From Minisyncoccia bacterium (GTDB lineage Bacteria; Patescibacteriota; Minisyncoccia; UBA6257; GWB1-50-10), in assembly GCA_049997815.1 (NCBI GenBank), contig JBEKVQ010000006.1, forward strand, positions 2,613-66,612: a stretch of DNA of 64,000 nucleotides. Reading direction: 5' to 3'. The translations under genes were made by a program, and so were the position numbers. Position 1 is the first letter of the stretch, and every line of letters starts with the position of its first letter. This document shows, in pieces, positions 18-40,555 of the stretch. The notes beneath the pieces were generated by a model, which was given only the letters and a program-made list of their open reading frames with translations, was not told the DNA's origin and ran no database searches.

Positions 18-1370
18 TTGGAACAATTCGGCGACCTTTGGAAAGCGGTGCCCAAGATCGCCCTAATGTATACGCGGAGCGTCAATTCCGAATACACGAA
101 CATCTCGGCCGATAGCAAGAATTGCTACATGATAGTCGAATCGTCCAACAACGAGAATTGCATCCATTGCTACTGGATCCAGCAATCCAAGGACCTAGTT
201 GACGTTTCTTTCACCAATAAAGTAGAGCTCTCTTACGAGAGCGATGACAGCTACGATTCCTACAAGATTTTCTACAGCAAGGGGTGCCATGATTGCCGGG
301 AGAGCTATTTCCTTTTGGATTGCCGGAATTGTTCCGACTGTTTCGGCTGCGTCAATTTGAGGAACAAGCAATATCACGTTTTCAACGAACCCTTGGGAAA
401 AGATGGGTACGAAAAATTCCTGAAGGAAGCCCGGTTGGATACGGCGAGCGGAGTCGAGGCGACGAGAAAGAAATTTGCTGAATTTCTGAAGACCCAGCCC
501 AGAAAGTACGCCGAGATAGTTAATGCCGTTAATTCATCGGGTAACTACATAAAAGACGCCAAGAACTGCAATTCTTGTTTTCATTGTTATGACGCCGAGG
601 ACTCCAAATATGGTGTCCATGTCTGGCGGGACGCCAAGGATTGTCTTGACGTCGATACGACCGGCAGGGGAGCTCAAATGATGTACAACTCGATGAATGC
701 CGGGATGAATGTATCGAATCAAATATGTTCCCGAATGTGCTGGTCAAGTACCTTCATGAGTTATTGTTATTATTCTTTCGATTCCAATAATTGTTTTGGA
801 TGCGTCGGGTTGAGGAACAAGAACTACTGCATTTTGAACAAGCAATATGAACCGGAGGAATATAAAGAACTGGTTTCACGGATAAGGGCCAAGATGGTTC
901 AAGACGGGGAGTATGGGGAATACTTGCCGTATAAGATGGCGCCGATCGGATATAATCTTTCTTTACTCGCTTCCACCTATTTCCCGCAGACCAGAGAATC
1001 GGTGGAGAAGCTCGGCGGGACCTGGGACGAATTGGAAAGCACCGGCGGCAACGTCGCTTTGCTCGAACCGGCCGATGATATCGGGGACGTCGACGAGAGC
1101 ATCGTAAAATACGGGATAAAATGCCTGGAGACCGGCCGGCCCTTCAATATCACGAAGGATGAATTGGATTTCCTGAAGAGGCACGGGATTCCGGTGCCGC
1201 GATATTATCCGGATGTGCGGACGTCCGAACGGTACAAGAAACTGGCGGATATCCGTCCGAGGGAAGCCAAGTGTTTCTTTTGCCAAAAACCCATAATCCA
1301 CTACTACCTGCCGGAGTGGGGATACAAAAAAATCGCGTGCAATGATTGTTATCTTAAAGAGGTAATTTAA
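18..1370 (+). CDS. Cys-rich zinc-ribbon repeat protein, family copy 1. The 5' end is cut by the window edge (frame open to position 3), so it is aligned to mid and C-terminal regions of the other copies. It has a divergent C-terminal ribbon module (ends CNDCYLKEVI).
   Basis: Frame open to window start. Mid-region motifs match the other copies (VNSEYTNISADSKNCYMIV, CRNCSDCFGCVNLRNKQYHVFN, FGCVGLRNKNYCILNKQYEPEEYKEL). A CxxC....CxxC tail is present. Confidence 0.6.
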   Translation: MEQFGDLWKAVPKIALMYTRSVNSEYTNISADSKNCYMIVESSNNENCIHCYWIQQSKDLVDVSFTNKVELSYESDDSYDSYKIFYSKGCHDCRESYFLLDCRNCSDCFGCVNLRNKQYHVFNEPLGKDGYEKFLKEARLDTASGVEATRKKFAEFLKTQPRKYAEIVNAVNSSGNYIKDAKNCNSCFHCYDAEDSKYGVHVWRDAKDCLDVDTTGRGAQMMYNSMNAGMNVSNQICSRMCWSSTFMSYCYYSFDSNNCFGCVGLRNKNYCILNKQYEPEEYKELVSRIRAKMVQDGEYGEYLPYKMAPIGYNLSLLASTYFPQTRESVEKLGGTWDELESTGGNVALLEPADDIGDVDESIVKYGIKCLETGRPFNITKDELDFLKRHGIPVPRYYPDVRTSERYKKLADIRPREAKCFFCQKPIIHYYLPEWGYKKIACNDCYLKEVI

Positions 1371-1385
1371 CTAGCAACCAGAGAC

Positions 1386-3131
1386 ATGCAACAAGAGACA
1401 AGGAATTGTCAGAGCTGTAAAAAACCTTTTGCAATTGAGCCGGAGGACTTCGCTTTCTACGAGCGGATAAAAGTTCCGGCGCCGACGTGGTGCCCGGAGT
1501 GCCGGATGAAGCGCAGAATGACCTTCCGGAGCGAGCACTCGCTCTTTAAAAGAAAGTGCGACCTATGCGGGAAGGAGATCATCGCCATGTACCATCCCGA
1601 GGCGGACGTTGTCGTCTACTGCTACGACTGCTGGTGGAGTGATAAGTGGGATGCCGCCGATTACGGAAAGGAATACGATTTCACGAAGCCGTTCTTCAAG
1701 CAATTCGGCCAGCTCTTGAAAGAAGTCCCGAGAGCGGCGCTCGAAGGATACAAGAATGAAAACTGTCCCTACACCAACTACACCTGGTTCTGCAAGAATA
1801 TCTACCTTTCCCCCTCGACTCTTTACTCCGAGAATATTTGGTATTCCCACGGGGTTACCTATTGCCAAGACAGCATGGACTGCGTTTATATCTATAATTC
1901 TCAGCTTTGTTACGAGTCGCTGGATTCGCTGTACTGCTCAAATTGCAAGTACCTGACCGATTGCCGGGAGTGCATCGATTGCGCATTCCTTTTCGATTGC
2001 CGCGGATGCCAGAGCTGTTTCATGAGTTCGAATCTTCGGAACAAATCGTACGTTTTCAGAAATACGCAGTTGTCCAAGGAGGAATACGAAATAAAAATGA
2101 GCGAGGTTAATCTCGGGAGCAGTTCCGCCACGGAAAAGCTTTTCCCTGAATACGAGAATTTGAGGTCGCGGGCCATCCATCGCTTCGCGAGCCTTTTTCA
2201 CACGAAGAACTGCACCGGAAATAATTTGAGCAATGCGAAAGACACGAGGTTCTGCTTTACCGGCGAGAAGCTGGAAAACGTGAGCCACGGCATCCGCATA
2301 ATCGACGCCAAGGATTCCGCCGACCTCTACGGCGTCGGGGACGGAGCCGAACTTCTCTACGACGGCGTGAACGTCGGATATCGGGATTCGCTCATCAGAT
2401 TTTCCATGAATACTTTTGAAAACATAATCGATGCAACTTATTGCAATGATTGCCGGGTTTCCCGGTATCTCTTCGGTTGTGCCGGCTTGCGGAAGAAGCA
2501 ATATCACATTTTGAACAAGGCCTATTCAAAAGAGGAGTACGAAGCGCTGATACTGAAGATAATCAAACACATGAACGATATGCCGTACACGGATAAAAAG
2601 GGCAAGGCATACCCCTTCGGCGAGTTTTCTCCGTCCGAATTCAGTCCGTTTTCTTACAACGAATCGATTGCGCAGGAGTACTATCCGATAGCCGAGAAGG
2701 AAGCCGTAGAGCAGGGTTTTCGCTGGAGAGCCTTGAGTACCCGGGAATACAAGATCACGAAGAACCCGAATGACCTGCCCGACGATATCAAGGAGGTTCC
2801 CGATTCTATAATTAAGGAAACCATCGGGTGCCTTCACGGAGGTTCGTGCGACGAGCCGTGCACGACCGCTTTCAAGATATTGGAATCGGAACTCCAATTT
2901 TACAGGCGGTTGAACTTGCCCTTGCCGCGTTTATGCCCGAATTGCCGGCATTATCGGCGAATCAAGTACAGGAATCCCCTGAATATACAGCTTTGGCATC
3001 GCGCCTGCATGTGCGGCAAGCCCGGCCACGGACATACGGATAAATGCCGCAACGAATTCGAAACGCCGTATTCTCCCGAACGCCCGGAGATCGTTTACTG
3101 CGAGCAGTGCTATCAATTGGAAGTTTCTTAA
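1386..3131 (+). CDS. Cys-rich zinc-ribbon repeat protein, family copy 2 (581 aa)
   Basis: N-term MQQETRNCQSCKKPFAIEPEDFAFYERIKVPAPTWCPECRMKRR. Internal CxxCxxCxxC-LRNK-Y-xxN-xYSKEEYE repeats. C-term FYRRLNLPLPRLCPNCRHY...NEFETPYSPERPEIVYCEQCYQLEVS. Confidence 0.7.
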   Translation: MQQETRNCQSCKKPFAIEPEDFAFYERIKVPAPTWCPECRMKRRMTFRSEHSLFKRKCDLCGKEIIAMYHPEADVVVYCYDCWWSDKWDAADYGKEYDFTKPFFKQFGQLLKEVPRAALEGYKNENCPYTNYTWFCKNIYLSPSTLYSENIWYSHGVTYCQDSMDCVYIYNSQLCYESLDSLYCSNCKYLTDCRECIDCAFLFDCRGCQSCFMSSNLRNKSYVFRNTQLSKEEYEIKMSEVNLGSSSATEKLFPEYENLRSRAIHRFASLFHTKNCTGNNLSNAKDTRFCFTGEKLENVSHGIRIIDAKDSADLYGVGDGAELLYDGVNVGYRDSLIRFSMNTFENIIDATYCNDCRVSRYLFGCAGLRKKQYHILNKAYSKEEYEALILKIIKHMNDMPYTDKKGKAYPFGEFSPSEFSPFSYNESIAQEYYPIAEKEAVEQGFRWRALSTREYKITKNPNDLPDDIKEVPDSIIKETIGCLHGGSCDEPCTTAFKILESELQFYRRLNLPLPRLCPNCRHYRRIKYRNPLNIQLWHRACMCGKPGHGHTDKCRNEFETPYSPERPEIVYCEQCYQLEVS

Positions 3132-3175
3132 TCGATTCCGAGATTGCCTGATTTAGTGTTATAATTATTCAAATA

Positions 3176-5074
3176 ATGGCGAACGAGATCGAAAAGGACG
3201 TCGTCTATTTTGCGAGAACCGATTTCCGCAACAGCGAGCGGCTTTTCGGCATCAAGCGCAAGGACCGGCGCCAGCACATGTACGTTATCGGCAAGACCGG
3301 CACCGGAAAGTCCGTCCTTTTGAACAACTTGATCATCCAAGACATCGCGAACGGCGAGGGTTTGTGCGTGATAGACCCGCACGGCGAATTGGCCGAGGGC
3401 CTTTTGGAAAAGATTCCCAAGGAGCGGATGAACGACGTCATCTATTTCAATCCCGCCGATGCGGATTTCCATATCGGCTTTAACGTATTGGAATTGCCCG
3501 ACCCCAAATACAAGCACTTGGCCGCTTCGGGCCTGATGAGCATCTTCACGAAGATATGGTCCGGCGTTTGGTCGGCGAGGATGGAATACATTTTGAACAA
3601 TGCGATTCTCGCGCTCTTGGATACGCCCGGCTCGACCCTCCTGGGCGTCACGCGGCTTTTAGTGGACAAAGAGTATCGCCAGAAAATTGTGGGGAACATC
3701 AAAGACCCGGTCGTGAAGGCCTTTTGGGTGAATGAGTACGAGGAGTGGAAGGACCAGTTCCGGAACGAGGCCATCGCGCCCATTCAAAACAAAGTCGGCC
3801 AGTTCCTCTCGACCTCGATGGTCCGGAACATCGTCGGCCAGTCCAAGAGCACGATAGATATCTTCGACATAATGAACACGGGAAAGATTTTCATCGTGAA
3901 CGTCTCGAAGGGACGCATCGGCGAGGACAACTCGGCACTTCTGGGAGCGATGCTCATCACGAAGATTCAGCTCGCTTCGATGGAGCGCGTGCGCGTGCCG
4001 GAAGACGAGCGCGTTGATTTTTATCTCTATGTGGACGAGTTCCAGAACTTCGCGACCGATTCTTTCGCGAGCATCTTGTCCGAATCCAGAAAATACCGGT
4101 TGGATTTGATTTTGGCCCATCAGTACATCGGCCAGCTCGTGACGGACGTTTCAACCAAGGTACGCGACGCGGTTTTCGGCAACGTCGGTACGATGGTTTG
4201 TTTCCGGGTAGGTGCGGCCGACGCCGAGTTTTTGGAAAGCGAATTCGAACCCGAATTCGTACCCCAAGATTTCGTTAACCTTCCGAACTACACGATTTAC
4301 CTGAAGCTAATGGTGGATGGCGTTACGAGCCGGCCCTTTTCGGCGAAGACGCTTCCGCCATTCAAGGTCAATTCATCCTCGGAGCTCGTAAAACACATCA
4401 TTGACAGTTCAAGGAAGCGTTACACGCGGCCGGCCTGGGAGGTGGAGAAGGAGGTTAGAGAGTGGAGTGGTATGACCGGTCCGGGCGGTGGCGGCGGTTC
4501 CTCGACGGGTCTTGGTTTCGGAAAATACGAGGTCGTGTGCTCTTCCTGTGGCAAGACGACGACCGTTCCCTTCGAGCCCCAGCCGGGACGGCCGGTCTAC
4601 TGCCAGGATTGCTTGGCCAAGATAAAGGCGGGCGAACTCCAACCGGTCACGGTTCGCAGGGATTCTCCGGCGGTGGCTTCAACCCAGATGAATCAATTCA
4701 CTGATCTGTCTAAGTTGGGCATTGAGTATGAAGAAAAGGTAGCGCCGCCGCCTAGGGCGGAACGGAAACCGGAAGAAGCGAGAAAAGAACCACCCGTGTT
4801 CAAAAAGGCCTTCAGTACTTTCAGACCCCAGCCAAGGGCTCAACAACAGCCCCAATCGAACGTCCAACAACAATCCCAAACAAGGACTCAAAGGCCGCCG
4901 GCCTTCGAGGAAAAACCATTCATTGAGGAATCGGAAAAACCGGCAATGTCCCTATCGGAGCTCTCGAAGCCCCACGAAGAAAAGAAAACGAAGGAACCGA
5001 AAGAAGGAATGGACGTGGAAAGTTTGCGGAACGCCTTGAAGGAAGCCCTGATCAACGTTGATGATAAGAAATAA
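3176..5074 (+). CDS. P-loop NTPase of the TraD/TraG(VirD4)/HerA-like (DUF87-type) superfamily. It has a C-terminal CxxC...CxxC zinc ribbon and a Pro/Gln/Glu/Lys-rich low-complexity tail. No N-terminal TM helices.
   Basis: Walker A YVIGKTGTGKSVLL. Walker B-like FYLYVDEFQNF followed by RKYRLDLILAHQYIGQL. Gly linker GPGGGGGSSTGLGFG then KYEVVCSSCGKTTTVPFEPQPGRPVYCQDC. Tail QQQPQSNVQQQSQTRTQRPP...EEKKTKEPKEG. Confidence 0.55.
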   Translation: MANEIEKDVVYFARTDFRNSERLFGIKRKDRRQHMYVIGKTGTGKSVLLNNLIIQDIANGEGLCVIDPHGELAEGLLEKIPKERMNDVIYFNPADADFHIGFNVLELPDPKYKHLAASGLMSIFTKIWSGVWSARMEYILNNAILALLDTPGSTLLGVTRLLVDKEYRQKIVGNIKDPVVKAFWVNEYEEWKDQFRNEAIAPIQNKVGQFLSTSMVRNIVGQSKSTIDIFDIMNTGKIFIVNVSKGRIGEDNSALLGAMLITKIQLASMERVRVPEDERVDFYLYVDEFQNFATDSFASILSESRKYRLDLILAHQYIGQLVTDVSTKVRDAVFGNVGTMVCFRVGAADAEFLESEFEPEFVPQDFVNLPNYTIYLKLMVDGVTSRPFSAKTLPPFKVNSSSELVKHIIDSSRKRYTRPAWEVEKEVREWSGMTGPGGGGGSSTGLGFGKYEVVCSSCGKTTTVPFEPQPGRPVYCQDCLAKIKAGELQPVTVRRDSPAVASTQMNQFTDLSKLGIEYEEKVAPPPRAERKPEEARKEPPVFKKAFSTFRPQPRAQQQPQSNVQQQSQTRTQRPPAFEEKPFIEESEKPAMSLSELSKPHEEKKTKEPKEGMDVESLRNALKEALINVDDKK

Positions 5075-6310: not shown

Positions 6311-7465
6311 ATGTCAAGAATAAAAGAAAAATTTAATCCCAAACAGGGCCGAAGGATTTTCGTAGGAATGTCCGGCGGGGTAGATTCTTCGGTTGCTGCT
6401 CATCTACTTAAAGAACAAGGCTTCGATGTAACCGGCGTTTTTATCCGTTCTTTCAACGTTGACGGTTGCGCCGAGCGGGATGCGGAGGATGCCCGGCGGG
6501 CGGCGGCGCACCTGGGGATTCCGTTCTATGTTTTTGACTTTGAGGAGGAGTATAAAAGGGAGGTGGTGGAGTATATGGTCAATGGCTATCGGAACGGCCT
6601 TACGCCCAATCCGGACGTGATGTGCAACAAGGAGATAAAGTTCGGGTTGTTTTTGAAAAAAGCCCTGGAAATGGGAGCTGACTACATTGCTACTGGGCAC
6701 TACGTTCGCCTAGATCGCTCGTCCAACACCCCTGCTCAGGGTGTCTCCGGGGCGACGCCCAAGTCTTACCCTTCGCAGGAGTGTCGGAACCCGCTCTCAG
6801 TAGCTCGTGATGCCAATAAAGATCAAAGCTATTTCCTGTGGACACTGACCCAGGATCAATTAGGGTATTGTCTTTTTCCAATTGGAGATTATTTGAAGGG
6901 GGAAGTGAGGGAAATCGCGCGGAAAGCGGGATTGCCGACGGCGGAAAAGAAAGACTCGCAGGGCATCTGTTTTCTGGGCGATGTGGCGCTCGACGAATTC
7001 CTGAAGGATTATATAAAGCCAAAGAGGGGGCCGATCGTTGATATAGATGGCAATAAGGTCGGTGAGCACGACGGGATTTTTTTCTATACCATCGGCCAGC
7101 GGCACGGCCTAGGTCTTGGCGGAGGGGAGCCGTACTACATCGCCGACAAAATTTTGAAGACCAATACGCTCATGATGGCGCGAGGGAGCGATAATCCAGC
7201 ACTTTTTAAAAAGGAAATAGAAATTGCGGATGTCCATTTTATCGATTCAAACCCTTCCGATAAACAAAGGGTTTTCGCTAGAGTTCGGTATCGTCAGCCA
7301 CTCGTCCCGGCGGAACTTCAGCGGCTCTCAAATTCAAATTATCGACTTGTCTTCAAGAGGGCGGTAAAATTTGTCGCGCCCGGCCAGTCGGCGGTCTTCT
7401 ACGAGGCCGGATACTTCGCCGGTCTTCGCGGCCGGAGGATGCTGGGGGGTGGTATAATAATTTGA
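6311..7465 (+). CDS. mnmA: tRNA-specific 2-thiouridylase MnmA
   Basis: PP-loop SGGVDSSVAA. Motifs NKEIKFGLF, ATGHYVR, KDQSYFLW and GICFLGD are typical of MnmA/TrmU. Confidence 0.85.
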   Translation: MSRIKEKFNPKQGRRIFVGMSGGVDSSVAAHLLKEQGFDVTGVFIRSFNVDGCAERDAEDARRAAAHLGIPFYVFDFEEEYKREVVEYMVNGYRNGLTPNPDVMCNKEIKFGLFLKKALEMGADYIATGHYVRLDRSSNTPAQGVSGATPKSYPSQECRNPLSVARDANKDQSYFLWTLTQDQLGYCLFPIGDYLKGEVREIARKAGLPTAEKKDSQGICFLGDVALDEFLKDYIKPKRGPIVDIDGNKVGEHDGIFFYTIGQRHGLGLGGGEPYYIADKILKTNTLMMARGSDNPALFKKEIEIADVHFIDSNPSDKQRVFARVRYRQPLVPAELQRLSNSNYRLVFKRAVKFVAPGQSAVFYEAGYFAGLRGRRMLGGGIII

Positions 7466-9237
7466 TGAACCCTGAAACAAAAACCTGCCAAAACTGCAAG
7501 CAACCGTTCAGAATTGAACCGGACGATTTTGCGTTTTACGAGCAGATAAAAGTTCCGCCACCGACTTTCTGTTTTGACTGTCGTTTGGAACGCCGCATGG
7601 TCTGGCGGAACGAGCGCTCGCTTTACAGGAGAAAATGCAATGCGCCGGGGCATTCGGAGGACATCATAAGCATGTACGCGCCGGAGGGGGAGTATAACGT
7701 CGTCGATTCAAAGTTCTGGTGGTCGGACGGGTGGGACCCGATGATGTACGGGCTTTATTACAATTTTTCCGTCCCGTTCTTCAAGCAATTCGAACGGTTG
7801 ACCCACAGCGTGCCGCTTTTGAATCTCTCCATCGTGAATTCGAATAATTCGGACTATACGAACTACGTGGACGGGAACAAGGACTGCTATCTGGTTTTCG
7901 GTTCGGGATGGAACGAGAACGTCAATTACGGCAACAAGATAATGGGCAATAAGGACTCCCAGGACCTTTTGGGTACCACGAAGTGCGAACTCTCGTATGA
8001 GAGCGTTAATTGCGTGGAGTGCTATCGGCTGCTTTACAGCCGGAACTGCAAGGCCTGTTCAAATTCTTGGTTTCTGTACAACTGCCGGAATTGTCAGGAT
8101 TGCGTCGGTTGCGCCAATCAGAACAACAAGACGCACTGCATTTTCAACGTCCAATACTCTAAAGAGGAGTACGAAAAGAAGCTGGGAGAGCTTGGGCTTA
8201 ATACAGTCGGAGGCATTGCTTCCGTTAAAGAGGAATTCACAAAAACCTATCTGCAGGTGCCTCACCGCTACGCGAATATTTTCAATTCGGTGGACTGCAC
8301 GGGGGAGAACATCAACGATTCGAAGAACGTAAAATATTCATTCGATATCTTCGAAAAGATGGAGGATTCGAGATATATGTACGGTTCGCTCCAGACCAAG
8401 GATTGCTACGACGGGAACGGCATTTACCAGAATCCGATGTGCTACGAGACGGTGGACGCGAACATCGGCCAGAACGTGCACATGTCGCTCACCATTTATT
8501 CCTCGAATGACATAACCTACTGCTGGAATTGCCACTCTTCATCCGACCTCTTCGGCTGCGTCGGTTTGCGCAATAAGAAGTATTGCATCTTGAACAAACA
8601 GTATACGAAAGAGGAATATGACGAGTTGCTCCCCAAGATAAAGAAACACATGAACGATATGCCGTATGTAGACAAGATTGGCCGGAAATACGGGTACGGG
8701 GAGTACTTCCCGGACGAAATATCGCCGTTCGCGCACAACGAGTCCATCTCGCAGGAGTATTTCACGCTTTCGAAAGAGGAAACCGAAAAAGCCGGATACG
8801 CCTGGCGCAATATGCTTGAACGGGATTATCGCCCGACCCTGCGTTCGGACCAGCTTCCGGACAGCTCCAGTTTTCCCGAATCTATCGCGAACGAGGTCGT
8901 GGAGTGCGAACACAAAGGGAGTTGCAACGAACAATGCACGACGGCTTTCAAATTCATTCCAGCTGAGATTCAGTTCTATAAGCGGCTGAACCTCCCGCTT
9001 CCGCATTTCTGCCCCAATTGCCGGCACTACGCCCGCTTGAGGCAGCGCAATCCGATAAAGCTTTGGCACCGCAAATGCCAGTGCGTCGGGGAAGCGTCCG
9101 AAAACGGCGTCTATCAAAACACCGTCCAACATCAGCATGGAGCAGGAAAATGTCCTAACGAATTTGAGACAAGTTACAGCCCGGAGAGGAAGGAGATAGT
9201 GTATTGCGAGCAGTGTTATCAAGCGGAAGTCGTATGA
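7465..9237 (+). CDS. Cys-rich zinc-ribbon repeat protein, family copy 3 (~590 aa)
   Basis: The ATG at 7465 overlaps the mnmA stop (TGATG). N-term MNPETKTCQNCKQPFRIEPDDFAFYEQIKVPPPTFCFDCR. C-term NEFETSYSPERKEIVYCEQCYQAEVV. Confidence 0.7.
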   Translation: MNPETKTCQNCKQPFRIEPDDFAFYEQIKVPPPTFCFDCRLERRMVWRNERSLYRRKCNAPGHSEDIISMYAPEGEYNVVDSKFWWSDGWDPMMYGLYYNFSVPFFKQFERLTHSVPLLNLSIVNSNNSDYTNYVDGNKDCYLVFGSGWNENVNYGNKIMGNKDSQDLLGTTKCELSYESVNCVECYRLLYSRNCKACSNSWFLYNCRNCQDCVGCANQNNKTHCIFNVQYSKEEYEKKLGELGLNTVGGIASVKEEFTKTYLQVPHRYANIFNSVDCTGENINDSKNVKYSFDIFEKMEDSRYMYGSLQTKDCYDGNGIYQNPMCYETVDANIGQNVHMSLTIYSSNDITYCWNCHSSSDLFGCVGLRNKKYCILNKQYTKEEYDELLPKIKKHMNDMPYVDKIGRKYGYGEYFPDEISPFAHNESISQEYFTLSKEETEKAGYAWRNMLERDYRPTLRSDQLPDSSSFPESIANEVVECEHKGSCNEQCTTAFKFIPAEIQFYKRLNLPLPHFCPNCRHYARLRQRNPIKLWHRKCQCVGEASENGVYQNTVQHQHGAGKCPNEFETSYSPERKEIVYCEQCYQAEVV

Positions 9238-17820: not shown

Positions 17821-18480
17821 ATGTTACCAATAGTTTTAGTCGCGGCGGCGATAGACAGCTTGAATCCCTGCGCTTTTTCGGTGCTGTTTCTCACCATTGC
17901 ATTCCTTTTCAGTCTGGGAAGAACGCGCTTGAACGTTCTCGTCGTTGGTGGGACTTTCATCTTCGGCATATTCCTGACGTATGTCCTGATCGGGCTCGGC
18001 ATTCTTCAGGCACTTACCGCCTTCGGAGTATCGGGCATCATCGCAAAAATCGGAGCTGTGCTTCTAATTATCTGGGGAGCACTAATTCTCGTGAACGAGT
18101 TTTTTCCGGCCTTCCCGATAAAGCTTAAGATGCCGGAATCGAGCCACAAGAAGATAGCGAAGTTGATGGAGAAAGCATCTTTGCCGGCGGCCTTCGTTCT
18201 GGGAATAATCGTCGGTCTCTATGAGTTCCCGTGCACCGGCGGTCCGTATCTTCTGGTCTTAAGCCTGCTCCATACTCGGGGTTATTTCTGGAGCGGCCTG
18301 GGATACCTCCTGCTCTACAACGTCGTATTCGTCTTGCCGCTCGTTATATTTCTGACCTTGGCCAGCAACCGGCAGATTTTGGACAAAATTCAGGAATGGC
18401 GCAAGAATAATATGAAAGGATTCAGAATTTGGGGAAGCTTGATTCTTATCCTCATGGGCTTTCTAATCTTTCTGACCTAA
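17821..18480 (+). CDS. ccdA: Cytochrome c-type biogenesis protein CcdA / DsbD-core transmembrane thiol-disulfide electron transporter
   Basis: DSLNPCAF in TM1 and EFPCTGGPYL in TM4, the two conserved Cys. Six TM helices. Confidence 0.75.
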   Translation: MLPIVLVAAAIDSLNPCAFSVLFLTIAFLFSLGRTRLNVLVVGGTFIFGIFLTYVLIGLGILQALTAFGVSGIIAKIGAVLLIIWGALILVNEFFPAFPIKLKMPESSHKKIAKLMEKASLPAAFVLGIIVGLYEFPCTGGPYLLVLSLLHTRGYFWSGLGYLLLYNVVFVLPLVIFLTLASNRQILDKIQEWRKNNMKGFRIWGSLILILMGFLIFLT

Positions 18481-31196: not shown

Positions 31197-31275
31197 AAAT
31201 CGGGTTAATCCGCACACTCGGCTGCGATGATTGCGTTCGGAGGTCGTATTGGCCCGTTTCGTATATAATAAAGAT

Positions 31276-32283: not shown

Positions 32284-32285
32284 AA

Positions 32286-34029
32286 ATGAATTTGGAAACC
32301 AGAAACTGCCAAAATTGTAAGCAATCCTTCGTCATTGAACCGGAGGATTTTGCGTTTTATGAAAGGATGACTGTTCCGCCTCCGACTTTTTGTTGGGAGT
32401 GCCGGATGCAACGGCGTTTTGTTTGGAGAAACGAACGCACATTGTACAAGAGAAAGTGTGATTCTTGCGGAAGGAGTTCACTCTCCATGCATCATCCCAA
32501 AGTCCCCATTGTCGCTTACTGCCAGGAGTGTTGGCTTTCCGACAAGTGGGATGCGTTATCTTTTGGGGTAGAGTATGATTTTTCAAGGAGTTTTTTCGAA
32601 CAAATTCGGGATTTGTTGCTGAGAGTCCCCCGAAGGATGCTTTTTGTCGTAAATTCCAAAAACTCGCCCTTCACAAATTACACCAGAAATGCAAAGAATG
32701 TCTACCTCTCCGTTTCAGCTTTGGAGTCAGAAAATATTTTCTTTTCGAAGAACACGCTGAGAACATTCTGGGCCTGCGATTGTTTTGACATAAATGATTC
32801 CGAAAACTGTTACAGTGCTATAAAGGGTGATAAAAATTACAATTCGAAGTTTTTATTCGAGAGCCGTAATTGCATTGACTGTGCTTTCCTTTATGACTGC
32901 GTGAATTGTAGGGGTTGTATACTTTCCTCGAATTTAAGGAATAAAGAATTCTACGTAAGAAATCGACCGTGCACCAAGGAAGAGTATCAAAAAGTACTTA
33001 CCTCACTTAACCTTGGAAGTGCCTTGTCTACTAAAAGTGCTGAATTGGAACTGGAGAGAATTAAGCAAGCCGCTCTCCATAAATATGCCCAACTGGTCAA
33101 TGCTCCGAATTGTTCGGGTGACAACATAGCTGATTCTAAGAACTGTCACTATTGTTTCGACGGCAGGAATGATGAAAATTTGAAGTTTGGTTTTAGAGAC
33201 CCAGGTGTCAAGGATTCTATGGATGTAGTGAATGGTGGCCCACAGGCAGAACTTTTTTATGAATTTATCGGTGGGGGAGGGATGAACAGTAGGTCCTTAA
33301 TGTTTACTGTTAATGCTGACGTCGGTCTTGATGATATTCGTTATACGGAATATTGCTCTAAATCCTCCCACCTCTTCGCCTGCATCGGCCTCCGTTCCAA
33401 GCAATACTGCATCCTAAACAAGCAATATTCGAAGGATGAGTACGAATCCCTGGTCCCCAAGATCATTGCCCACATGAACACTCAGCCCTACATAGACCAG
33501 AAGGGCAGGATATATAGATACGGCGAGTTCTTCCCCCCGGAGCTCTCTCCCTTCGCCTACAACGAAACCATCGCCCAGGAGTACTTCCCCCTGACCAAAG
33601 GAGAAGCAGAGAAACAGGGCTATAGATGGAAAGACCCCGATACCCAAGGAATACGTGATAACCATCCTCCCAACCAAGCTTCCTGACCATGTGAAGGACG
33701 TAAAGGACGACATCCTATCCCAGACCATAGGGTGTGTCCACGAAGGCAAGTGCACCCACCAATGCACCACCGCTTTCAGAATCATCCCCGAAGAACTCTC
33801 CTTCTACCGAAGGATGAACCTCCCTTTACCCCGACTCTGCCCTAACTGCCGGCACTACGAACGCCTAGCTCAGAGAAATCCTTTGAAGCTGTGGCATAGG
33901 CAATGTATGTGCGATAAGACCACCCATACCCATAAGGGCCACTGTCTGAACGAATTCGAGACGAGTTACAGCCCAGAGCGGAAAGAAATCGTGTATTGCG
34001 AATCCTGTTATAATTCAGAGGTAGTATGA
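32286..34029 (+). pseudogene. Cys-rich zinc-ribbon repeat protein, family copy 9. It is disrupted by a +1 frameshift in a CCC run (33643-33645) and split into ORFs 32286-33686 and 33655-34029.
   Basis: The two ORFs together reconstitute a full-length family member (...GYRWKDPDT | KEYVITILPTKLPDHVKDVKDD...). The break coincides with a homopolymer. Confidence 0.6.
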
Positions 34030-35225
34030 AGATAAAAAGCATTGAAATAAAAGAAATATTGGATTCGCGGGGTGAGCCGACGATAGAGGTGAACGTAACC
34101 GGCGAAAACAACGAGAGCACTTCCGCTCAAATCCCTTCCGGGAAGAGCCGGGGGAAGAACGAAGCGGCGGTACTGAAACCGGCGGAAGCGGGGCATGTTT
34201 TGGAAAAGACGATAAAACCGAACATCGCCGACCGGAACTTCGAATCCATCGGTGAACTGGATGCGTTTCTGATAGCTCTGGACGGCACCGACAACAAAGA
34301 AAGATTGGGCGGGAACCTTATTTTGGGCATCTCGATCGCTTTTGCGCGCCTTATGGCCAAACAGCAGGAAAAAGAGCTGTGGCAGGTTTTGAACGAAGAA
34401 TTCTTTGAGGGTAAAAAATATTACGAGAAGCCCCTGATATTCTCCAACCTCATAAACGGCGGAGCGCACGCCAAGAACAACCTGGATATCCAGGAATATA
34501 TGGTCGTGGTGAGGCCGTACCCGTCGTATAAAATGGCCATCAGAGAGCTTGAGGATTTTTACGCTAAGCTCGGAGATTTTCTGAAAGAGAAGTTCAAGCT
34601 GGAAAAATTGGCGTTGGGCGACGAGGGCGGATATTCACTGAAATTTTCCAATAATTTCGAACCGATAGAAGTGCTTTCGGAGATGATAGAAAAATTCGAC
34701 ATTACGAAGATATTCTCGATCGCGCTGGACTGCGCCGCGAACGGTTTTTACAAGGATGGACTGTACAGCTTCGGCAAGCAGAAGTTGAATTTCATGGAGA
34801 TGGCCGAAATATATCGGGTTTATTTTCAAACCGTTCCGCTCCTGGTGTCCATAGAAGACCCGTTTGCCGAGGATGACCACGCTGGTTTCAAAAGATTGCA
34901 TTCTTTGTACAAAAACAAGCTGGTGGTGGGGGACGATTTGGCGGTAACGAACCCCCTCGTGATCGAAGAGGCCGTGAAGGAGAAATTGATGAGCGGGGTG
35001 ATAATCAAGCCGAATCAGGTTGGCACCGTGACCGAAACCTGCGAAGCGATGAAGATAGCTCACGTGAACGGTTTAAAGACCATCGTCTCCCACCGCTCGG
35101 GGGAGGAGAATGACCCGTTCATAATTCACTTCGCCAAAGCCGGCGGAGCTTATGGCGTAAAGATCGGCGCGCCGGTCCCGAGCCGGATATCAAAATATAT
35201 CGAACTGGAAAGGCTCTATGGCTAG
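34026..35225 (+). CDS. eno: Enolase (phosphopyruvate hydratase), divergent and short (399 aa)
   Basis: N-term IKEILDSRGEPTIEVNV...PSGKSRGKNEA. C-term SHRSGEENDPFIIHFAKAGGAYGVKIGAP...SKYIELERL. ATGA overlap with the copy 9 stop. Confidence 0.75.
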   Translation: MKIKSIEIKEILDSRGEPTIEVNVTGENNESTSAQIPSGKSRGKNEAAVLKPAEAGHVLEKTIKPNIADRNFESIGELDAFLIALDGTDNKERLGGNLILGISIAFARLMAKQQEKELWQVLNEEFFEGKKYYEKPLIFSNLINGGAHAKNNLDIQEYMVVVRPYPSYKMAIRELEDFYAKLGDFLKEKFKLEKLALGDEGGYSLKFSNNFEPIEVLSEMIEKFDITKIFSIALDCAANGFYKDGLYSFGKQKLNFMEMAEIYRVYFQTVPLLVSIEDPFAEDDHAGFKRLHSLYKNKLVVGDDLAVTNPLVIEEAVKEKLMSGVIIKPNQVGTVTETCEAMKIAHVNGLKTIVSHRSGEENDPFIIHFAKAGGAYGVKIGAPVPSRISKYIELERLYG

Positions 35226-36993
35226 CGAAACCCGTGAGTGCCAAAATTGCAATCGATCCTTCGTCATTGAACCGGAGGATTTCAGTTTCTACGAGCGGAT
35301 AAAAGTTCCACCACCGACGTGGTGTCCGGAATGCAGGATGATAAGAAGAATGACCTGGCGGAACGAAAGGAATCTTTACAGAATCGCCTGCGGTCTTTGC
35401 GGGAAAAGCATAATCTCGCTCTACCCACCCGAGAGCGGCGTCAAAGTTTATTGCAGTCAATGCTGGTTTTCGGACAAATGGGATGCATCGAATATTAATT
35501 TAGATTACGATTTTTCCCGGCCGTTCTTTTCCCAGTGGCACGATTTGTTCATGAAAGCGCCCCTAATCGCCATATGGTCGATAAGAGGCAACGTCAACTC
35601 GGAATACTGCAGTTATGCCGCGGATAACAAGAATTGTTATCTGTCATCCTCGGTTCTTTGGAGCGAAAACGTGTCTTACTCTTATTCGGTCGACAGGGAC
35701 AGGGATTGCATTGATTGTGCTTTCCTCAATGATTCTGAGCTTTGCTACGAGAATCTGAACGGCGCGAATAACTACAGGTCCGTTTTTCTCATTCAATCAA
35801 GGAATTGCCTGGATTCCTCATTCCTTTTCGACTGCGTCAATTGCCAGAATTGTTTCTTGAGCTGGAATTTGAGGAACAAAAGATTCGTTTTTAGGAATCA
35901 GCAGCTTGATGAAGCATCGTATAAAGAAAAATTGAAGGAGTTTGAGATGGGAAGCTCGGCAAATTTAGTGAGATTATTTGATGAATTCACTAAGATTTCG
36001 AAAGAAAAAGCCCTGCATCGTTACGCCAATATAATAAAGTCCCAAAAAGCGACGGGGGATAACATAGAAAATTCCAAGAACGTTAAGGAAGTTTTTGAGG
36101 CTTATGAAGATGAAAACGCATTTTACGGCGTAAGGGTATTTAAGGACAAGGATGTTGTGGATGCGATTGGCGTCGTCGGATCGGAGCTCGGCTACGAGTT
36201 GATCGCCCCGGGTTTGGCGAGCTATATGAGCCTGTTCGTAATGTTAAACGATTCCTGCCGCGAAGTGTCTTTTACGAATTACTGCTTCAATTGTTCCAAC
36301 TGTTTTGCTTGTATCGGTCTCAAGAACAAGCAATACTGCATCCTGAATAAGCAATACACCAAGGAAGAGTACGAATCACTGGTTCCCCGTATCATTGCCC
36401 ACATGAACGACATGCCCTACATAGACAAGAAGGGCAGGGTCTACCGATACGGTGAGTTCTTCCCCCCGGAATTATCTCCCTTCGCCTACAACGAAACCAT
36501 CGCCCAGGAGTACTTTCCCCTCACGAAAGGAGAGGCCATAGAGAAGGGCTACCGCTGGAAGGAGCCGGAAGAGAAAAAATATGAGATTACCATCCTTAAT
36601 GACCGGATCCCCGATAATATAAAGGACGTTCGCGACGATATCGTGAATGAGGTCATAGAATGCGCCCATAAGGGAGAATGCAATGAGCACTGCACTCAGG
36701 CCTTCAAGATGACGCCACCCGAAGTTCAATTCTATAAACGGATGAATCTTCCGTTGCCCCGGTTATGTCCAAATTGCCGGCATTACCAGCGTTTGAGGAG
36801 AAGAAATCCTTTAAGGCTTTGGCACCGGAAATGCGCCTGCGCCGGCGCAAAATCCAATAATGGTTCATATATGAACACCATTTCCCACCAGCACGGAGCG
36901 GGGAAGTGCCCGAACGAGTTCGAAACCTCCTACGCTCCGGAGCGGAAAGAGATAGTGTATTGCGAAAGTTGCTACAACACCGAAGTCGTATGA
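35218..36993 (+). CDS. Cys-rich zinc-ribbon repeat protein, family copy 10 (591 aa)
   Basis: N-term MASETRECQNCNRSFVIEPEDFSFYERIKVPPPTWCPECR. C-term NEFETSYAPERKEIVYCESCYNTEVV. Overlaps the eno stop by 8 nt. Confidence 0.7.
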   Translation: MASETRECQNCNRSFVIEPEDFSFYERIKVPPPTWCPECRMIRRMTWRNERNLYRIACGLCGKSIISLYPPESGVKVYCSQCWFSDKWDASNINLDYDFSRPFFSQWHDLFMKAPLIAIWSIRGNVNSEYCSYAADNKNCYLSSSVLWSENVSYSYSVDRDRDCIDCAFLNDSELCYENLNGANNYRSVFLIQSRNCLDSSFLFDCVNCQNCFLSWNLRNKRFVFRNQQLDEASYKEKLKEFEMGSSANLVRLFDEFTKISKEKALHRYANIIKSQKATGDNIENSKNVKEVFEAYEDENAFYGVRVFKDKDVVDAIGVVGSELGYELIAPGLASYMSLFVMLNDSCREVSFTNYCFNCSNCFACIGLKNKQYCILNKQYTKEEYESLVPRIIAHMNDMPYIDKKGRVYRYGEFFPPELSPFAYNETIAQEYFPLTKGEAIEKGYRWKEPEEKKYEITILNDRIPDNIKDVRDDIVNEVIECAHKGECNEHCTQAFKMTPPEVQFYKRMNLPLPRLCPNCRHYQRLRRRNPLRLWHRKCACAGAKSNNGSYMNTISHQHGAGKCPNEFETSYAPERKEIVYCESCYNTEVV

Positions 36994-38771
36994 ACTCCGA
37001 AACTAAAACCTGTAAAAACTGTAGCTCGTCCTTCGTCATTGAACCGGACGACCTTACTTTTTACGAGCGGATAAAAGTTCCGCCACCGACTTTCTGCCCG
37101 GAGTGCCGAAGCCAGCGGAGGCTTTCATGGCGGAACGACATGAATTTGTACACCCGTCCCTGTGATTCGTGCGGGAAGAGGATGGTTTCTCTTTATTCTC
37201 CGGATTCCGGGATGACGGTCTATTGCGTGAAATGCTGGTGGAGCGATAAATGGAACCCGAAGGATTATGCAATGGAATATGATTTTTCTAAGCCGTTCCT
37301 CAGGCAATTCGACGAATTGCAGAAAAAGGTGCCAATACTCGCGCTTGCGAACGATGACGGTCTCGTCGGAGGAAGCGTGAATTGTGAATACAATCATGAC
37401 TTTGCCCGAGCGAAGAATTGCTACATGGTTTTCGTGGCCTGGAAGCTCCAGGATTCCATGTACAGTCACTATATCGTTGACAGCAAGGGGATGGTGGATT
37501 GTTTGAGCAGCTGGGACGAGTCCGATTCGGTTTATGAGGGAATATTCGCCGAGAGGTGCTATAAATGCTGGTACGTTTTTTACTCCGTCGCTCTTTCGGA
37601 TTGCGCATTTTGCCTGGATTCTAGGGATTCTTCCGATTGCTTCATGTGCACCGGCTTGCGCCACAAGCGGTATTACTTCAAGAACAGGCCATATTCCAAG
37701 GAGGAATACGAAAAAATCCTGGCCGATTACAAACTCGATACGTATAGTGGCGTGGAACGGGCCAAGGAGGAATTTAGGGAGATGCTCTATTTGAAGCCGC
37801 GCAAATTTTCCATACTGCGCAACACCGTAAATTCAACCGGGGATTATCTGACCAATTGTAAAAATTGCCGAGACTGTTTTTTGGTCCAGCGCGGAGAGAA
37901 CCTTCGGTATGTAGAGAGCTCGGATACGCCCGTGGACTCTTACGATCTAAGCACGGGAGGAGAATTGCAGTATTGCTATGAAGGAATTACGCCGGACCAC
38001 TCGTATATGGGCCGATTTGAAATATTTTCGTGGAAGAATACGGATGTTTTTTATCTGGACGGCTGCCATTCCTGCAAGGATGTTTTTGGGTGTTGCGGGC
38101 TCAAAAAAGCGCAGTATTGTATTTTGAATAAGCAGTACACGAAAGAGGAGTACGAAAAAATTTTGCCTAAGGTCATAGAGCACATGAATGCGATGCCGTA
38201 TAAGGACAAAAACGGCGTGGAATACCGCTTCGGCGAGTTTTTCCCCGCAGAGTTGTCTTACTTCGGTTATAACGAAAGCGTTGCCCAAGAACGGATTCCG
38301 CTAAGTCGCGAACAGGCGCTCGCCAGCCATTTTAACTGGCGGGACAAGTTACAGCTGACGACCGGCCAGGAGACAGTCAAGACAGAAAATTTGCCCGATT
38401 CCATAGATGACGTAAAGGATTCCATATTGAATGAGGTTCTGGCCTGCATTGGATGCAAAAGGAATTACCGTATTGTTCTTCAGGAATTGCAATTTTACCG
38501 GCGAATGAAGATCCCTTTGCCCCGAAAATGTTTCTATTGTAGGCATCAGGCTCGCGTGAATTTTCGGAATCCCTTCAAGCTTTGGCACCGGAAATGCGCC
38601 TGCGTGGGTTCGACAAGCTCACCACAGGCTGGTCCCGGCTTTGTTTATCAAAATACAGTGAAGCATTTCCATGGCGATAAGGAATGCCCCAATGAATTTG
38701 AGACCTCATACGCGCCTGAGCGGAAAGAGGTGGTATATTGCGAGCAGTGTTATAATTCAGAAATCGTATGA
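36990..38771 (+). CDS. Cys-rich zinc-ribbon repeat protein, family copy 11 (~593 aa)
   Basis: ATGA overlap. N-term MNSETKTCKNCSSSFVIEPDDLTFYERIKVPPPTFCPECR. C-term NEFETSYAPERKEVVYCEQCYNSEIV. The upstream part of the long ORF call (from 36906) overlaps copy 10 and is rejected. Confidence 0.7.
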   Translation: MNSETKTCKNCSSSFVIEPDDLTFYERIKVPPPTFCPECRSQRRLSWRNDMNLYTRPCDSCGKRMVSLYSPDSGMTVYCVKCWWSDKWNPKDYAMEYDFSKPFLRQFDELQKKVPILALANDDGLVGGSVNCEYNHDFARAKNCYMVFVAWKLQDSMYSHYIVDSKGMVDCLSSWDESDSVYEGIFAERCYKCWYVFYSVALSDCAFCLDSRDSSDCFMCTGLRHKRYYFKNRPYSKEEYEKILADYKLDTYSGVERAKEEFREMLYLKPRKFSILRNTVNSTGDYLTNCKNCRDCFLVQRGENLRYVESSDTPVDSYDLSTGGELQYCYEGITPDHSYMGRFEIFSWKNTDVFYLDGCHSCKDVFGCCGLKKAQYCILNKQYTKEEYEKILPKVIEHMNAMPYKDKNGVEYRFGEFFPAELSYFGYNESVAQERIPLSREQALASHFNWRDKLQLTTGQETVKTENLPDSIDDVKDSILNEVLACIGCKRNYRIVLQELQFYRRMKIPLPRKCFYCRHQARVNFRNPFKLWHRKCACVGSTSSPQAGPGFVYQNTVKHFHGDKECPNEFETSYAPERKEVVYCEQCYNSEIV

Positions 38772-40555
38772 ATCCGGAAGCCAAAACCTGCCAAAATTGC
38801 AAGCAAAATTTCACGATTGAACCGGACGATTTTGCGTTCTACGAGAAAATCCACGTTCCACCGCCGACTTTCTGTCCGGAGTGCCGGATGCAAAGAAGGT
38901 TGATTTGGCGGAACGAACGGACGCTTTATAAGCGCAAGTGCGACGCGCCGGGACACTCCGAAGACATCATTTCGATGTATTCACCGGAGCAAACGTTTCC
39001 CATATACGATCATGCTTATTGGTACGGCGACGGTTGGGATTCCGGAAGCTACGGCCGGGATTACGATTTCTCGAAGCCGTTCTTTCCTCAGTTTAAGGAG
39101 TTGCTTCACGCGGTGCCCCACGTAACGCTTTTCGACAGTAAATCGGTCAATTCCAATTACTGCAACATCGTCGTGGAACAGAAGAATTGCTATCTCGTGA
39201 GCGCCGGCTGGGGGAATGAGGACTCCTTATACAGTAACCGCATTGCTTATTGCAAGGACACGGTTGATTCGTACGTTTGCCACAAGACCGAATTCGGATA
39301 CGAGAACGTCTATTGCAAGGAATCGAACCGGCTTATCTTCAGTTTGAGGAGCGAAGGATGCGTCGATTCTTATTTCCTTTACGATTGCCGGAATTGCTCC
39401 GATTGCATCGGGTGCGCGAATTTGAGGAATAAGAAATACTGCATCTTCAACCAGCAGTACACGAAGGAGGAATATCAGAAAAAGGCGTCGGAAATGAATC
39501 TCGGAAGTTACAGATCTCTTTTGGAACTCTCGGCTAAGTTCGAAAAAATACGGCTAAACGCCGTGAGCCGTTTCGCTTCTCTTTATAACACCCAAAACGT
39601 CATCGGGGACAACATCGAAGATTCGAGGAATTGCTATTACTGCTTCGACCTTGACGGCGACGCGGAAAATTCCAAATATTGCCACTGGTCCACGAGGGGA
39701 TTACGCGACTGCTATGATTCTGGGCCCGGCGCCGGCGGAAATTCAGAGTTGCTTTATGAAGGCATCAGCATCGGCGTGGTGAACTCAAGATGCAAGCTGG
39801 GCGTCATCGTGTGGTACTCGCACGATATGGAGTACTGCTACAATTGCCAGGATTCCCATGACCTCTTCGGCTGTGTCGGCATGCGCAAGAAAGAATACTG
39901 CGTTTTCAATAAACAATATTCGAAGGAGGAGTACGAAAAATTGGTATCGAAGATAAAGAAACAAATGGATAATGTGCCCTATGTCGATTCTAGAGGAAGA
40001 ATTTACAAATACGGCGAATTTTTCCCGCCGGACATAAGCCCGTTCACCTATAATGAAACCGTCGCCCAGGACTACATGCCGCTCACGAAAGATGGCGCTT
40101 TAAAGGGCGGATATAAATGGCGGGAGATGGAGAGCCGTGGCCACAAACCCACCATTTCTTCCGCTGACCTGCCGGATACTATTCAGGACGTTCCCGATTC
40201 AATAACCAAAGAAACCATAGGTTGCGCTCACGAAGGCAAGTGCAATGACCAGTGCACTGTCGCCTTCAGGATTATTTCGGAGGAATTGGCATTTTATCGC
40301 CGAATGAATCTTCCCTTGCCTCATCTATGTCCCAATTGCCGCCATTATCAGAGGCTGGCGGAAAGGAATCCCCTGAAGCTGTGGCATCGTAAGTGCCAGT
40401 GTGCCGGAACCGGCTCGGAAAACGGAATGTATAAAAATACCGTTCAGCACCAGCACGGAGATGGCCATTGCCCGAACGAATTTGAAACATCTTACGCTCC
40501 GGACCGCAAGGAAATCGTCTACTGCGAAAATTGCTACAATAGCGAAGTGGTATAA
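38768..40555 (+). CDS. Cys-rich zinc-ribbon repeat protein, family copy 12 (595 aa)
   Basis: ATGA overlap. N-term MNPEAKTCQNCKQNFTIEPDDFAFYEKIHVPPPTFCPECR. C-term NEFETSYAPDRKEIVYCENCYNSEVV. Confidence 0.7.
   Translation: MNPEAKTCQNCKQNFTIEPDDFAFYEKIHVPPPTFCPECRMQRRLIWRNERTLYKRKCDAPGHSEDIISMYSPEQTFPIYDHAYWYGDGWDSGSYGRDYDFSKPFFPQFKELLHAVPHVTLFDSKSVNSNYCNIVVEQKNCYLVSAGWGNEDSLYSNRIAYCKDTVDSYVCHKTEFGYENVYCKESNRLIFSLRSEGCVDSYFLYDCRNCSDCIGCANLRNKKYCIFNQQYTKEEYQKKASEMNLGSYRSLLELSAKFEKIRLNAVSRFASLYNTQNVIGDNIEDSRNCYYCFDLDGDAENSKYCHWSTRGLRDCYDSGPGAGGNSELLYEGISIGVVNSRCKLGVIVWYSHDMEYCYNCQDSHDLFGCVGMRKKEYCVFNKQYSKEEYEKLVSKIKKQMDNVPYVDSRGRIYKYGEFFPPDISPFTYNETVAQDYMPLTKDGALKGGYKWREMESRGHKPTISSADLPDTIQDVPDSITKETIGCAHEGKCNDQCTVAFRIISEELAFYRRMNLPLPHLCPNCRHYQRLAERNPLKLWHRKCQCAGTGSENGMYKNTVQHQHGDGHCPNEFETSYAPDRKEIVYCENCYNSEVV

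Follow-up and report, generated by a model that had tools for sequence, protein, structure and literature searches.

Why would a streamlined genome carry a long run of genes for a single unnamed family of cysteine-rich proteins? Genomes of Paceibacteria are well under 1 Mb and hold few dispensable genes. The question is raised by 64,000 nucleotides of a Minisyncoccia bacterium (assembly GCA_049997815.1, contig JBEKVQ010000006.1, positions 2,613 to 66,612 of the forward strand), the whole stretch that we analysed and refer to as the window. Twelve paralogous genes, all on the + strand, lie within positions 18–40555 of this window; their products align end to end, at 34–55% identity to copy 5, and the genes sum to 20,773 bp, or 32% of the window. 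We find that this twelve-copy cysteine-rich array is real, ancient, constrained and multi-copy, and that its products are cytoplasmic, multi-metal β-solenoid proteins with homologous zinc-finger modules at each end; a tie of the family to orphan VirD4-like ATPases is possible. An earlier note, made from the sequence alone, had proposed twelve such genes filling about a third of the window, one of them truncated at its 5' end and one frameshifted, and here open reading frames (ORFs), alignment and tblastn agree with it. With copy 5 as the query, tblastn returned precisely these twelve loci and no others in the 64 kb:

18–1370, + strand: family copy 1, 5' end truncated by the window edge; C-terminal module (C-module) short and divergent
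1386–3131, + strand: family copy 2, 581 aa, 36 Cys
7465–9237, + strand: family copy 3, 590 aa; Cys of the second N-terminal ribbon gone
9234–10907, + strand: family copy 4, 557 aa; C-module of the short form, with its knuckle CxxC and the His insert missing; 4-nt overlap between the stop of copy 3 and its start; ComEC downstream
20703–22475, + strand: family copy 5, 590 aa; reference for residue numbering
22472–24259, + strand: family copy 6, 595 aa; 4-nt stop/start overlap with copy 5
24256–26034, + strand: family copy 7, 592 aa; second N-terminal ribbon without Cys; 4-nt overlap with copy 6
26031–27827, + strand: family copy 8, 598 aa, 40 Cys; 4-nt overlap with copy 7; phosphoenolpyruvate (PEP) synthase next
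32286–33686, + strand: family copy 9, first 466 aa, ending at the frameshift near 33650
33598–34029, + strand: family copy 9, C-terminal 150 residues in another frame, reaching 34026 (tblastn residues 436–590, 59% identity); its end is the enolase start
35218–36993, + strand: family copy 10, 591 aa; start overlaps the enolase end
36990–38771, + strand: family copy 11, 593 aa; C-module knuckle of CxxC type, His insert kept
38768–40555, + strand: family copy 12, 595 aa; second N-terminal ribbon without Cys

Copy 1 can be read at its full length of 549 aa in L163 (6546–8195), which covers the same locus (L163:1–8195) and in which four more family genes immediately adjoin the window start. The array therefore comprises at least 16 copies in about 47 kb. 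L162, a Joint Genome Institute (JGI) assembly of the same upstream stretch, has several broken ORFs. Copy 9 is intact (584 aa) in L166, an assembly with an identical enolase, so that its frameshift in the window reflects either faulty assembly or a lesion of very recent date. L166 also carries a family gene in place of the window's 2-hydroxyacid dehydrogenase (31231–32283). Tight operons in the window combine the copies with housekeeping genes, namely those for MnmA, ComEC, glycerate kinase, PEP synthase and enolase. Consecutive copies overlap by ATGA (at 9234, 22472, 24256, 26031, 36990 and 38768), and 4-nt stop/start overlaps also join copies to housekeeping genes. The final conserved codons of a copy, Glu-Val-Val/Ile (GA[A/G]GTn), lie 5–9 nt before the next ATG, for example as GAGGT before 24256. 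Because these last codons resemble a Shine-Dalgarno sequence ahead of the next start, part of the conservation at the C-terminus may serve translational coupling.

Read from the conserved ATG, the complete copies are 557–598 aa long and contain 33–40 cysteines and 9–13 CxxC motifs. The CxxC pairing had been noted correctly at the outset; the 40–50 cysteines then counted per copy were too many, and the lengths then given (567–620 aa) match upstream alternative starts (567–621 aa) rather than the conserved one. As the earlier note had it, there is no signal peptide or transmembrane (TM) helix: the maximum 19-residue Kyte-Doolittle mean is at most 1.33, and the first zinc knuckle begins at residue 8. 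We obtained an AlphaFold2 model from a 61-sequence alignment, with a mean predicted local distance difference test score (pLDDT) of 87 and a predicted template modelling score (pTM) of 0.87. In the numbering of copy 5, used throughout, the parts of the protein are:

20703–20987, + strand: copy 5 N-terminal module (N-module), residues 1–95
20988–21437, + strand: copy 5 solenoid unit 1, residues 96–245
21438–21878, + strand: copy 5 solenoid unit 2, residues 246–392
21879–22136, + strand: copy 5 conserved linker, residues 393–478
22137–22472, + strand: copy 5 C-module, residues 479–590

The N-module holds a treble-clef-like finger (C8, C11, C36, C39), in which the second cysteine pair opens a helix, followed by a second ribbon with the exact spacing CxxC-x17-CxxC (C58, C61, C79, C82). 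The C-module is homologous to it (hhalign probability 99.3%, E 1.3e-20) and differs by a 22-residue Cys/His insert that separates the first ribbon cysteine from the second; one or two additional Cys/His sites are usually present in it. In the core, each unit consists of a helix, a Cys-rich β-solenoid and a helix, and units 1 and 2 are themselves homologous (hhalign probability 99.9%, E 5.4e-37), indicating a tandem internal duplication; the more variable cores, in which recurring cysteine units had rightly been picked out, are in fact duplicated. The linker is acidic, mostly without regular secondary structure, and includes the most conserved sequence of the protein, GEFFPPELSPFAYNETIAQEYFPLTKEEA. 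Across 188 members, conservation peaks in the terminal modules, at the unit junctions (211–230, 361–392) and in the linker, as well as over residues 361–440, and the variable part of the protein is the solenoid rungs. Net charge follows this division, with +2.1 and +3.6 in the terminal modules, −4.3 in solenoid unit 1, −6.0 in the linker and a mean of −4 for the whole protein; the zinc modules contain conserved Arg/Lys-rich helices (CRxxRRxxWRNERxLYKR and CRHYxRLKQRNPLKLWHRKC). A full-length multiple alignment recovers the shared N- and C-terminal consensus on which the claim of paralogy had been made to depend. The N-terminal consensus string had been written down correctly, but the second ribbon, ascribed to every full-length copy, has lost its cysteines at 7465, 24256 and 38768. 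The C-terminal string occurs in most copies, as was said, with copies 1 and 4 shorter and lacking the His-rich insert.

The way in which ligands disappear across the 188 sequences points to metal sites. C61, C79 and C82 stay or go as a set (phi 0.92–0.96): the four-Cys site C58/C61/C79/C82 is complete in 100 sequences, and C61, C79 and C82 are all absent from 80, 31 of which have additionally lost C58. In the C-module, H483 and C487 covary perfectly (phi 1.0), C540, H556 and H558 covary with phi 0.95–0.99, and C563-x17-C581-x2-C584 is near-invariant. Since ligands are lost in threes and fours and histidines covary with cysteines, the pattern is that expected of tetrahedral metal sites and not of disulfide pairs, which fits a cytoplasmic protein. 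From these patterns we infer at least four to five predicted metal sites per chain, and up to about eight. The bound metal is most likely zinc, by analogy with the CxxC-x17-CxxC domain of small proteins of Methanosarcina mazei, which was found to bind Zn by inductively coupled plasma mass spectrometry (PMC12704099). The ladder of solenoid unit 1 has CxxC pairs at 12-residue intervals (182/185, 194/197, 206/209) and then a further pair at 212/215; C197, C206, C209, C212 and C215 are nearly invariant among close homologues. The stretch from C197 to C215 is also the least confident part of the model (pLDDT 66–78), as expected of a site that requires a cofactor.

These proteins belong to no family that we could name. 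No Pfam, NCBIfam or PADLOC model reached threshold on any copy scanned (two family copies in the case of PADLOC), and none of these searches, nor those against PDB profiles and folds, covers a whole protein, which bears out the earlier note's failure to place the architecture. Over 61 members, the only recurrent Pfam matches are to zf_Tbcl (13/61) and zf_Tbcl_2 (10/61), always below cut-off; matches to Med15_N, Lip_prot_lig_C and SLED in the Pfam and NCBIfam scans were treated as noise. The second finger of the N-module (C58-x2-C61-x17-C79-x2-C82) resembles zf_Tbcl_2 (PF23477) and TIGR04272 in its spacing and in the signature (F/Y)xP...VYCxxC. The best score of a family member is 24.5 bits in Pfam and 21.4 bits in NCBIfam, short of the curated cut-offs of 27 and 36 bits. 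Known members of zf_Tbcl_2 are stand-alone proteins of about 40 aa or tails, whereas in this family the domain stands at either end of a protein of 590 aa, is interrupted in its C-terminal copy by the 22-residue Cys/His insert, and has lost its N-terminal site in 3 of 11 readable N-termini in the window and 80 of 188 family members. Residues 5–44 (CxxC, about 24 residues, CxxC at the start of a helix) resemble zf_Tbcl (PF13451) instead: 13 of the 61 members match at E ≤ 0.01, with a best E of 1.7e-4, and window copies score 17–18.5 bits, all below the cut-off of 24 bits. The DSSP assignment of these residues in the model is compatible with a treble clef, which the PF13451 domain probably is; zf_Tbcl is itself a Pfam family without known function.

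Comparison at the level of fold led to equally generic relatives. Sequence-profile matches in the PDB, for the full protein as well as for the N-module and C-module, had a best E of 0.17 (influenza M1, LIM fingers, Rpb9) and were rejected. Foldseek with the full model against the PDB gave only weak matches to left-handed β-helix acyltransferases (best E 1e-3, TM-score about 0.1), and the fold search as a whole matched only generic β-solenoids, many surface adhesins among them. The Tenebrio antifreeze protein (1EZG), the ryegrass ice-recrystallisation inhibitor (3ULT) and a CsgA-like curli subunit (8C50) share 6–10% identity with the family; they are secreted and either disulfide-bonded or Cys-free, whereas the family has no signal peptide and shows ligand covariation of the metal type, and no ice-binding or amyloid role is suggested.

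The earlier note had also set the family apart from DnaJ, canonical 4Fe-4S proteins and metallothioneins, and the motifs and Pfam matches of all three are indeed missing. The copies lack CxxCxGxG repeats and any DnaJ_CXXCXGXG match. Their cysteine run is CX2CX2CX2C without Pro, not the CX2CX2CX3CP of 4Fe-4S ferredoxins, and neither the copies nor the 61 members match Fer4. Metallothioneins are smaller than 10 kDa, with 20–30% Cys and no aromatic residues or regular secondary structure, whereas the family proteins have about 590 aa, about 6% Cys, many Tyr, Phe and Trp residues, and an ordered fold (pLDDT 87). Bactofilins are likewise no match for the family, with no DUF583/PF04519 hit in the Pfam scans and no solved bactofilin among the top fold matches, and PADLOC found nothing for anti-phage defence in the two family copies given to it. 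Giardia variant-specific surface proteins form a CxxC-rich multigene family that is eukaryotic, secreted, membrane-anchored and fast-evolving. They share with our family its size in paralogues and its wealth of CxxC, but the latter is bacterial, without an export signal and under purifying selection. We found no description of the family in the literature. Its building blocks are of recognisable kinds (two poorly characterised Pfam zinc fingers and a solenoid); their arrangement, like the family as such, is undescribed, and in this sense the finding is not an ordinary one.

How widespread and how old is the family? At least 8,000 clusters at 90% identity scored as significant, and all of the 120 matches listed are unnamed or hypothetical. 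An exhaustive HMMER scan of 1.84 billion representatives returned 2,264 clusters at 50% identity with E ≤ 1e-30 and 5,253 with E ≤ 1e-3. The named sources are ultra-small bacteria of the Paceibacteria type within the candidate phyla radiation (CPR), to which the family is confined: Liptonbacteria, Staskawiczbacteria, Sungbacteria, Nomurabacteria, Giovannonibacteria, Jorgensenbacteria and Niyogibacteria. The exceptions by label are three contigs (Gammaproteobacteria, Bacteroidales and Burkholderiales). The Burkholderiales contig, L075 (JAMPXW010000002.1, 268 kb), has the gene order of Nomurabacteria with five family copies and both ATPases described below, and since this synteny is the same as in Nomurabacteria contigs, it is probably a mis-binned CPR contig. 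No family relative appeared in a scan of IMG/VR viral contigs.

Tandem arrays are the rule in the family. In loci of up to 21 kb, 53 of 81 carry at least two copies, and two have nine in tandem. The homologous arrays that the earlier note suggested looking for in other CPR genomes thus exist, and their frequency in many Paceibacteria-type genomes is at odds with its view of a lineage-specific expansion. Paralogues in the window are 36–54% identical to one another and 50–62% identical to copies in distant genomes, so that the duplications are older than the divergence of these lineages. Two orthologous copies compared between the window genome and the related contig L082 are 84–86% identical, with ratios of nonsynonymous to synonymous substitution rates (dN/dS) of 0.05–0.07 and no domain above 0.11, among them copy 2 (86% identical, dN/dS 0.066); the ATPase encoded at 3176–5074 is 94% identical with dN/dS 0.034, all of these ratios being approximate because dS is near saturation. 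The strong selection for diversity that had been supposed is not what these old, constrained genes show, and we rejected both recent tandem duplication and diversifying selection on the cross-genome identities and dN/dS. Copy 1 has no orthologue in L082 (L082:2863–9930), though both its neighbours do. Relatives thus differ by gains and losses of copies, while those retained are constrained.

What might such proteins work with? Clustering of ORFs in 81 related loci and the window yielded a single enriched neighbour, homologues of an ATPase gene that lies between copies 2 and 3:

3176–5074, + strand: VirD4/TraD/HerA-type P-loop ATPase, type i, soluble; C-terminal CxxC-x17-CxxC zinc finger and disordered tail

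This ATPase matches TrwB_AAD_bind, DUF87 and TraG-D_C in Pfam, together with zf_Tbcl_2 at 55.9 bits, and in NCBIfam TIGR04272 at 59.3 bits as well as TraD-like models; both zinc-finger scores exceed their cut-offs. PADLOC gave generic HerA and mad8 ATPase models only. Two types occur, type i of about 620–800 aa with the finger and type ii of about 490 aa without it. Homologues account for 26 of 201 genes flanking the family, compared with 13 of the 766 remaining genes of these loci (odds ratio 8.6, p 3e-10, uncorrected for kinship among the loci). ATPase and family genes lie on the same strand with gaps of 1–260 bp, and two independent scans found the order ATPase, one to seven copies, ATPase in at least 17 loci. 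In the window's own lineage, L082 has copies placed between ATPase ii and ATPase i. When the scan was run the other way, starting from the ATPase, 18 of 80 loci had a family gene next to it. The ATPases also belong to a wider conserved locus (secD, secF, rpoD, TM protein, small TM protein, ATPase ii, ATPase i, efp), which occurs without family genes in L083, L117 and L123. The TM subunit that accompanies the ATPases has about 450 aa and one N-terminal TM helix, and no Pfam or NCBIfam match. Some genomes encode it fused to the ATPase, as 790-aa proteins (BLAST E 2e-11); the loci of this observation are 3176–5074 of the window, L043:3178–5550 and L015:807–2156. Because it occurs both split from and fused to the ATPase, the set resembles a split type IV coupling protein (T4CP).

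VirD4-like genes are common in these bacteria. A survey of 2,918 Patescibacteria genomes counted 5,713 of them, of which only 148 lie close to virB4, and its authors raised exaptation as a possibility (PMC12102498). Among the window ORFs that were scanned, none was recognised as virB4 or a channel gene. The nearest parallel that we can draw is with TraM and TraD, that is, with relaxosome accessory proteins and T4CP substrates, in that family genes adjoin VirD4/TraD-like ATPases with a TraG-D_C region. TraM-type proteins have no sequence or fold similarity to the family, however, no relaxase or channel genes lie near it, and the ATPase pair is also present without it.

Two other neighbourhoods were considered and set aside. 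In the Nomurabacteria-like contigs L038, L050, L064, L075, L017, L026 and L053, the block stands within a chaperone operon, in the order PaaX-like regulator (minus strand), DnaK, ATPase i, family copies, ATPase ii, DnaJ, family copy. We dropped DnaK/DnaJ linkage as a general feature of the family, this being one syntenic group only. Thiol-redox membrane genes occur in the window, with DoxX and VKOR (40401–41473) right after the last family copy and a DsbD/CcdA-like gene at 17821–18480; they were dropped as evidence of disulfide chemistry, as VKOR, DoxX and CcdA neighbours are not enriched across the loci.

Our best guess, weakly held and tentative, is that the family proteins are non-enzymatic zinc scaffolds or adaptors that work with the VirD4-like ATPase, given that their genes adjoin or lie between two ATPase genes in many genomes, this one included. 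On this proposal the metal sites would brace a rigid solenoid scaffold, the basic modules at the two ends would dock onto nucleic acid or a partner protein, and each paralogue would owe its particular specificity to the variable faces of its solenoid. Translationally coupled operons would let several paralogues be produced together, as adaptors or clients of the membrane-anchored VirD4/TraD-like ATPase pair, whose cargo could be DNA or the family proteins themselves. A bolder version, which we regard as doubtful, makes the family the partner set (cargo or cargo adaptors) of an orphan, membrane-anchored VirD4-like ATPase pair in an unrecognised translocation system, and takes nearly all Patescibacteria to carry such a pair away from virB4. 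Several observations weigh against the adaptor proposal. The neighbourhood statistic may in part reflect the shared ancestry of the loci, for which it is not corrected; most family copies, 10 of 12 here, stand among housekeeping genes and away from the ATPase; and the ATPase pair, zinc finger included, is widespread in loci without family genes. The finger has no positive association with the presence of the family (odds ratio 0.43). We accordingly rejected the idea that it is specifically tied to the family, as it is equally common where the family is absent. Since the pair is common without the family, the machine can do without it, and the shared finger proves nothing. The proposed function draws no support from homology to any protein of known function, and the near-invariant C197/C206-x2-C209-x2-C212-x2-C215 run, in the least confident part of the model, could bind iron or an iron–sulfur (Fe-S) cluster instead of zinc.

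Other explanations take up the same evidence. The basic modules could clamp DNA or RNA with the solenoid as a rigid spacer, making the family stand-alone nucleic-acid-binding or nucleoid/RNA-organising proteins with no tie to the ATPase. The conserved Arg/Lys-rich helices of the treble-clef and zinc-ribbon modules, the net positive charge of the terminal modules, neighbourhoods with translation and DNA-uptake genes, and weak fold matches to DksA/TraR and ribosomal zinc fingers lend this some credit, yet we think it unlikely. The proteins are acidic overall, with the mean net charge of −4, and their conserved basic residues may contact the acidic linker of their own chain, the pTM implying a compact fold; sixteen paralogues would be unusual for a nucleoid protein, and neither Pfam nor the PDB profile and fold searches returned a significant match to any nucleic-acid-binding family. 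Somewhat less probable to us is that the proteins are exported, as cargo that a VirD4-like coupling ATPase would send by a type IV-like route to the cell surface or the host, where they would form a host-interaction repertoire. Such a role would suit genes that adjoin T4CP-like ATPases with a membrane subunit and whose many products combine conserved termini with variable solenoid faces; copies are gained and lost among close relatives, the solenoid fold matches include many surface adhesins, and the orphan T4CPs of Patescibacteria have no known cargo (PMC12102498). The covarying His ligand patterns, by contrast, point to intracellular metal sites, and a channel for unfolded chains would hardly take multi-zinc proteins so tightly folded. 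Repertoires of effectors or antigens evolve fast, unlike these ancient paralogues under strong purifying selection; most copies share transcripts with housekeeping genes, and the scanned window ORFs lack an identified virB4 or channel gene.

The cysteine ladders invite a redox reading, which we rate lower again: the CxxCxxCxxC run and the ladders would hold Fe-S clusters or rubredoxin-like iron for electron transfer or redox sensing or, in one version that draws on the genes found between dnaK and dnaJ in some genomes, the proteins would be redox-switched chaperones. The near-invariant C197, C206, C209, C212 and C215 do recall the first three cysteines of a ferredoxin motif, the low model confidence there is what a cofactor-requiring site would give, and the DnaK, ATPase, copies, ATPase, DnaJ, copy block recurs in Nomurabacteria-like loci. 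The spacing CX2CX2CX2C nevertheless lacks the CP of 4Fe-4S motifs, the matching positions in solenoid unit 2 are degenerate, no Pfam Fe-S domain matches, and the dnaK/dnaJ context is limited to its one syntenic group. Least probable in our estimation are self-assembly into structural elements, that is, head-to-tail hetero-polymeric solenoid filaments or lattices akin to a bactofilin-like cytoskeleton, and a zinc store. In favour are a β-solenoid fold, homologous protein ends, the likely, tightly coupled co-expression of several paralogues and the large share of a small genome given to the family. The model is a compact monomer with high pTM, however, no bactofilin (DUF583) match was found, and a large, ordered, aromatic-rich protein with about 6% Cys is unlike metallothionein.

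Beyond the array, the window contains two MreB paralogues 5 kb apart (55210–56217 and 60872–61900; Pfam MreB_Mbl, E 4e-129 and 5e-114), which flank a DNA polymerase III delta'-like gene, D-Ala-D-Ala ligase and a class II tRNA synthetase. Three ORFs have no significant Pfam family: 44388–45662 (424 aa), 45695–47383 (562 aa) and 18485–19012 (175 aa), the 562-aa one having weak GlxA/Baseplate_J-like matches only. ARAGORN found no tRNA or tmRNA gene in the 64 kb, and Rfam gave no match at gathering thresholds.

A streamlined genome thus spends at least 16 genes and about 28 kb, several per cent of its coding capacity, on one family that fills thousands of public clusters without a name, a Pfam model or a solved relative. 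The family now has a confident architecture, with terminal zinc-finger modules around a duplicated Cys-rich solenoid, and defined predicted metal sites. It also has a concrete genomic partner in the orphan VirD4-like ATPases; what these do in Patescibacteria is a recognised question. What was a hypothetical protein has become amenable to expression, metal typing and binding tests. If the family did turn out to be the partner system of the orphan ATPases, it would bear on DNA scavenging or on the delivery of proteins to a host, and its metal-stapled, duplicated β-solenoid would be a new class of specificity module.

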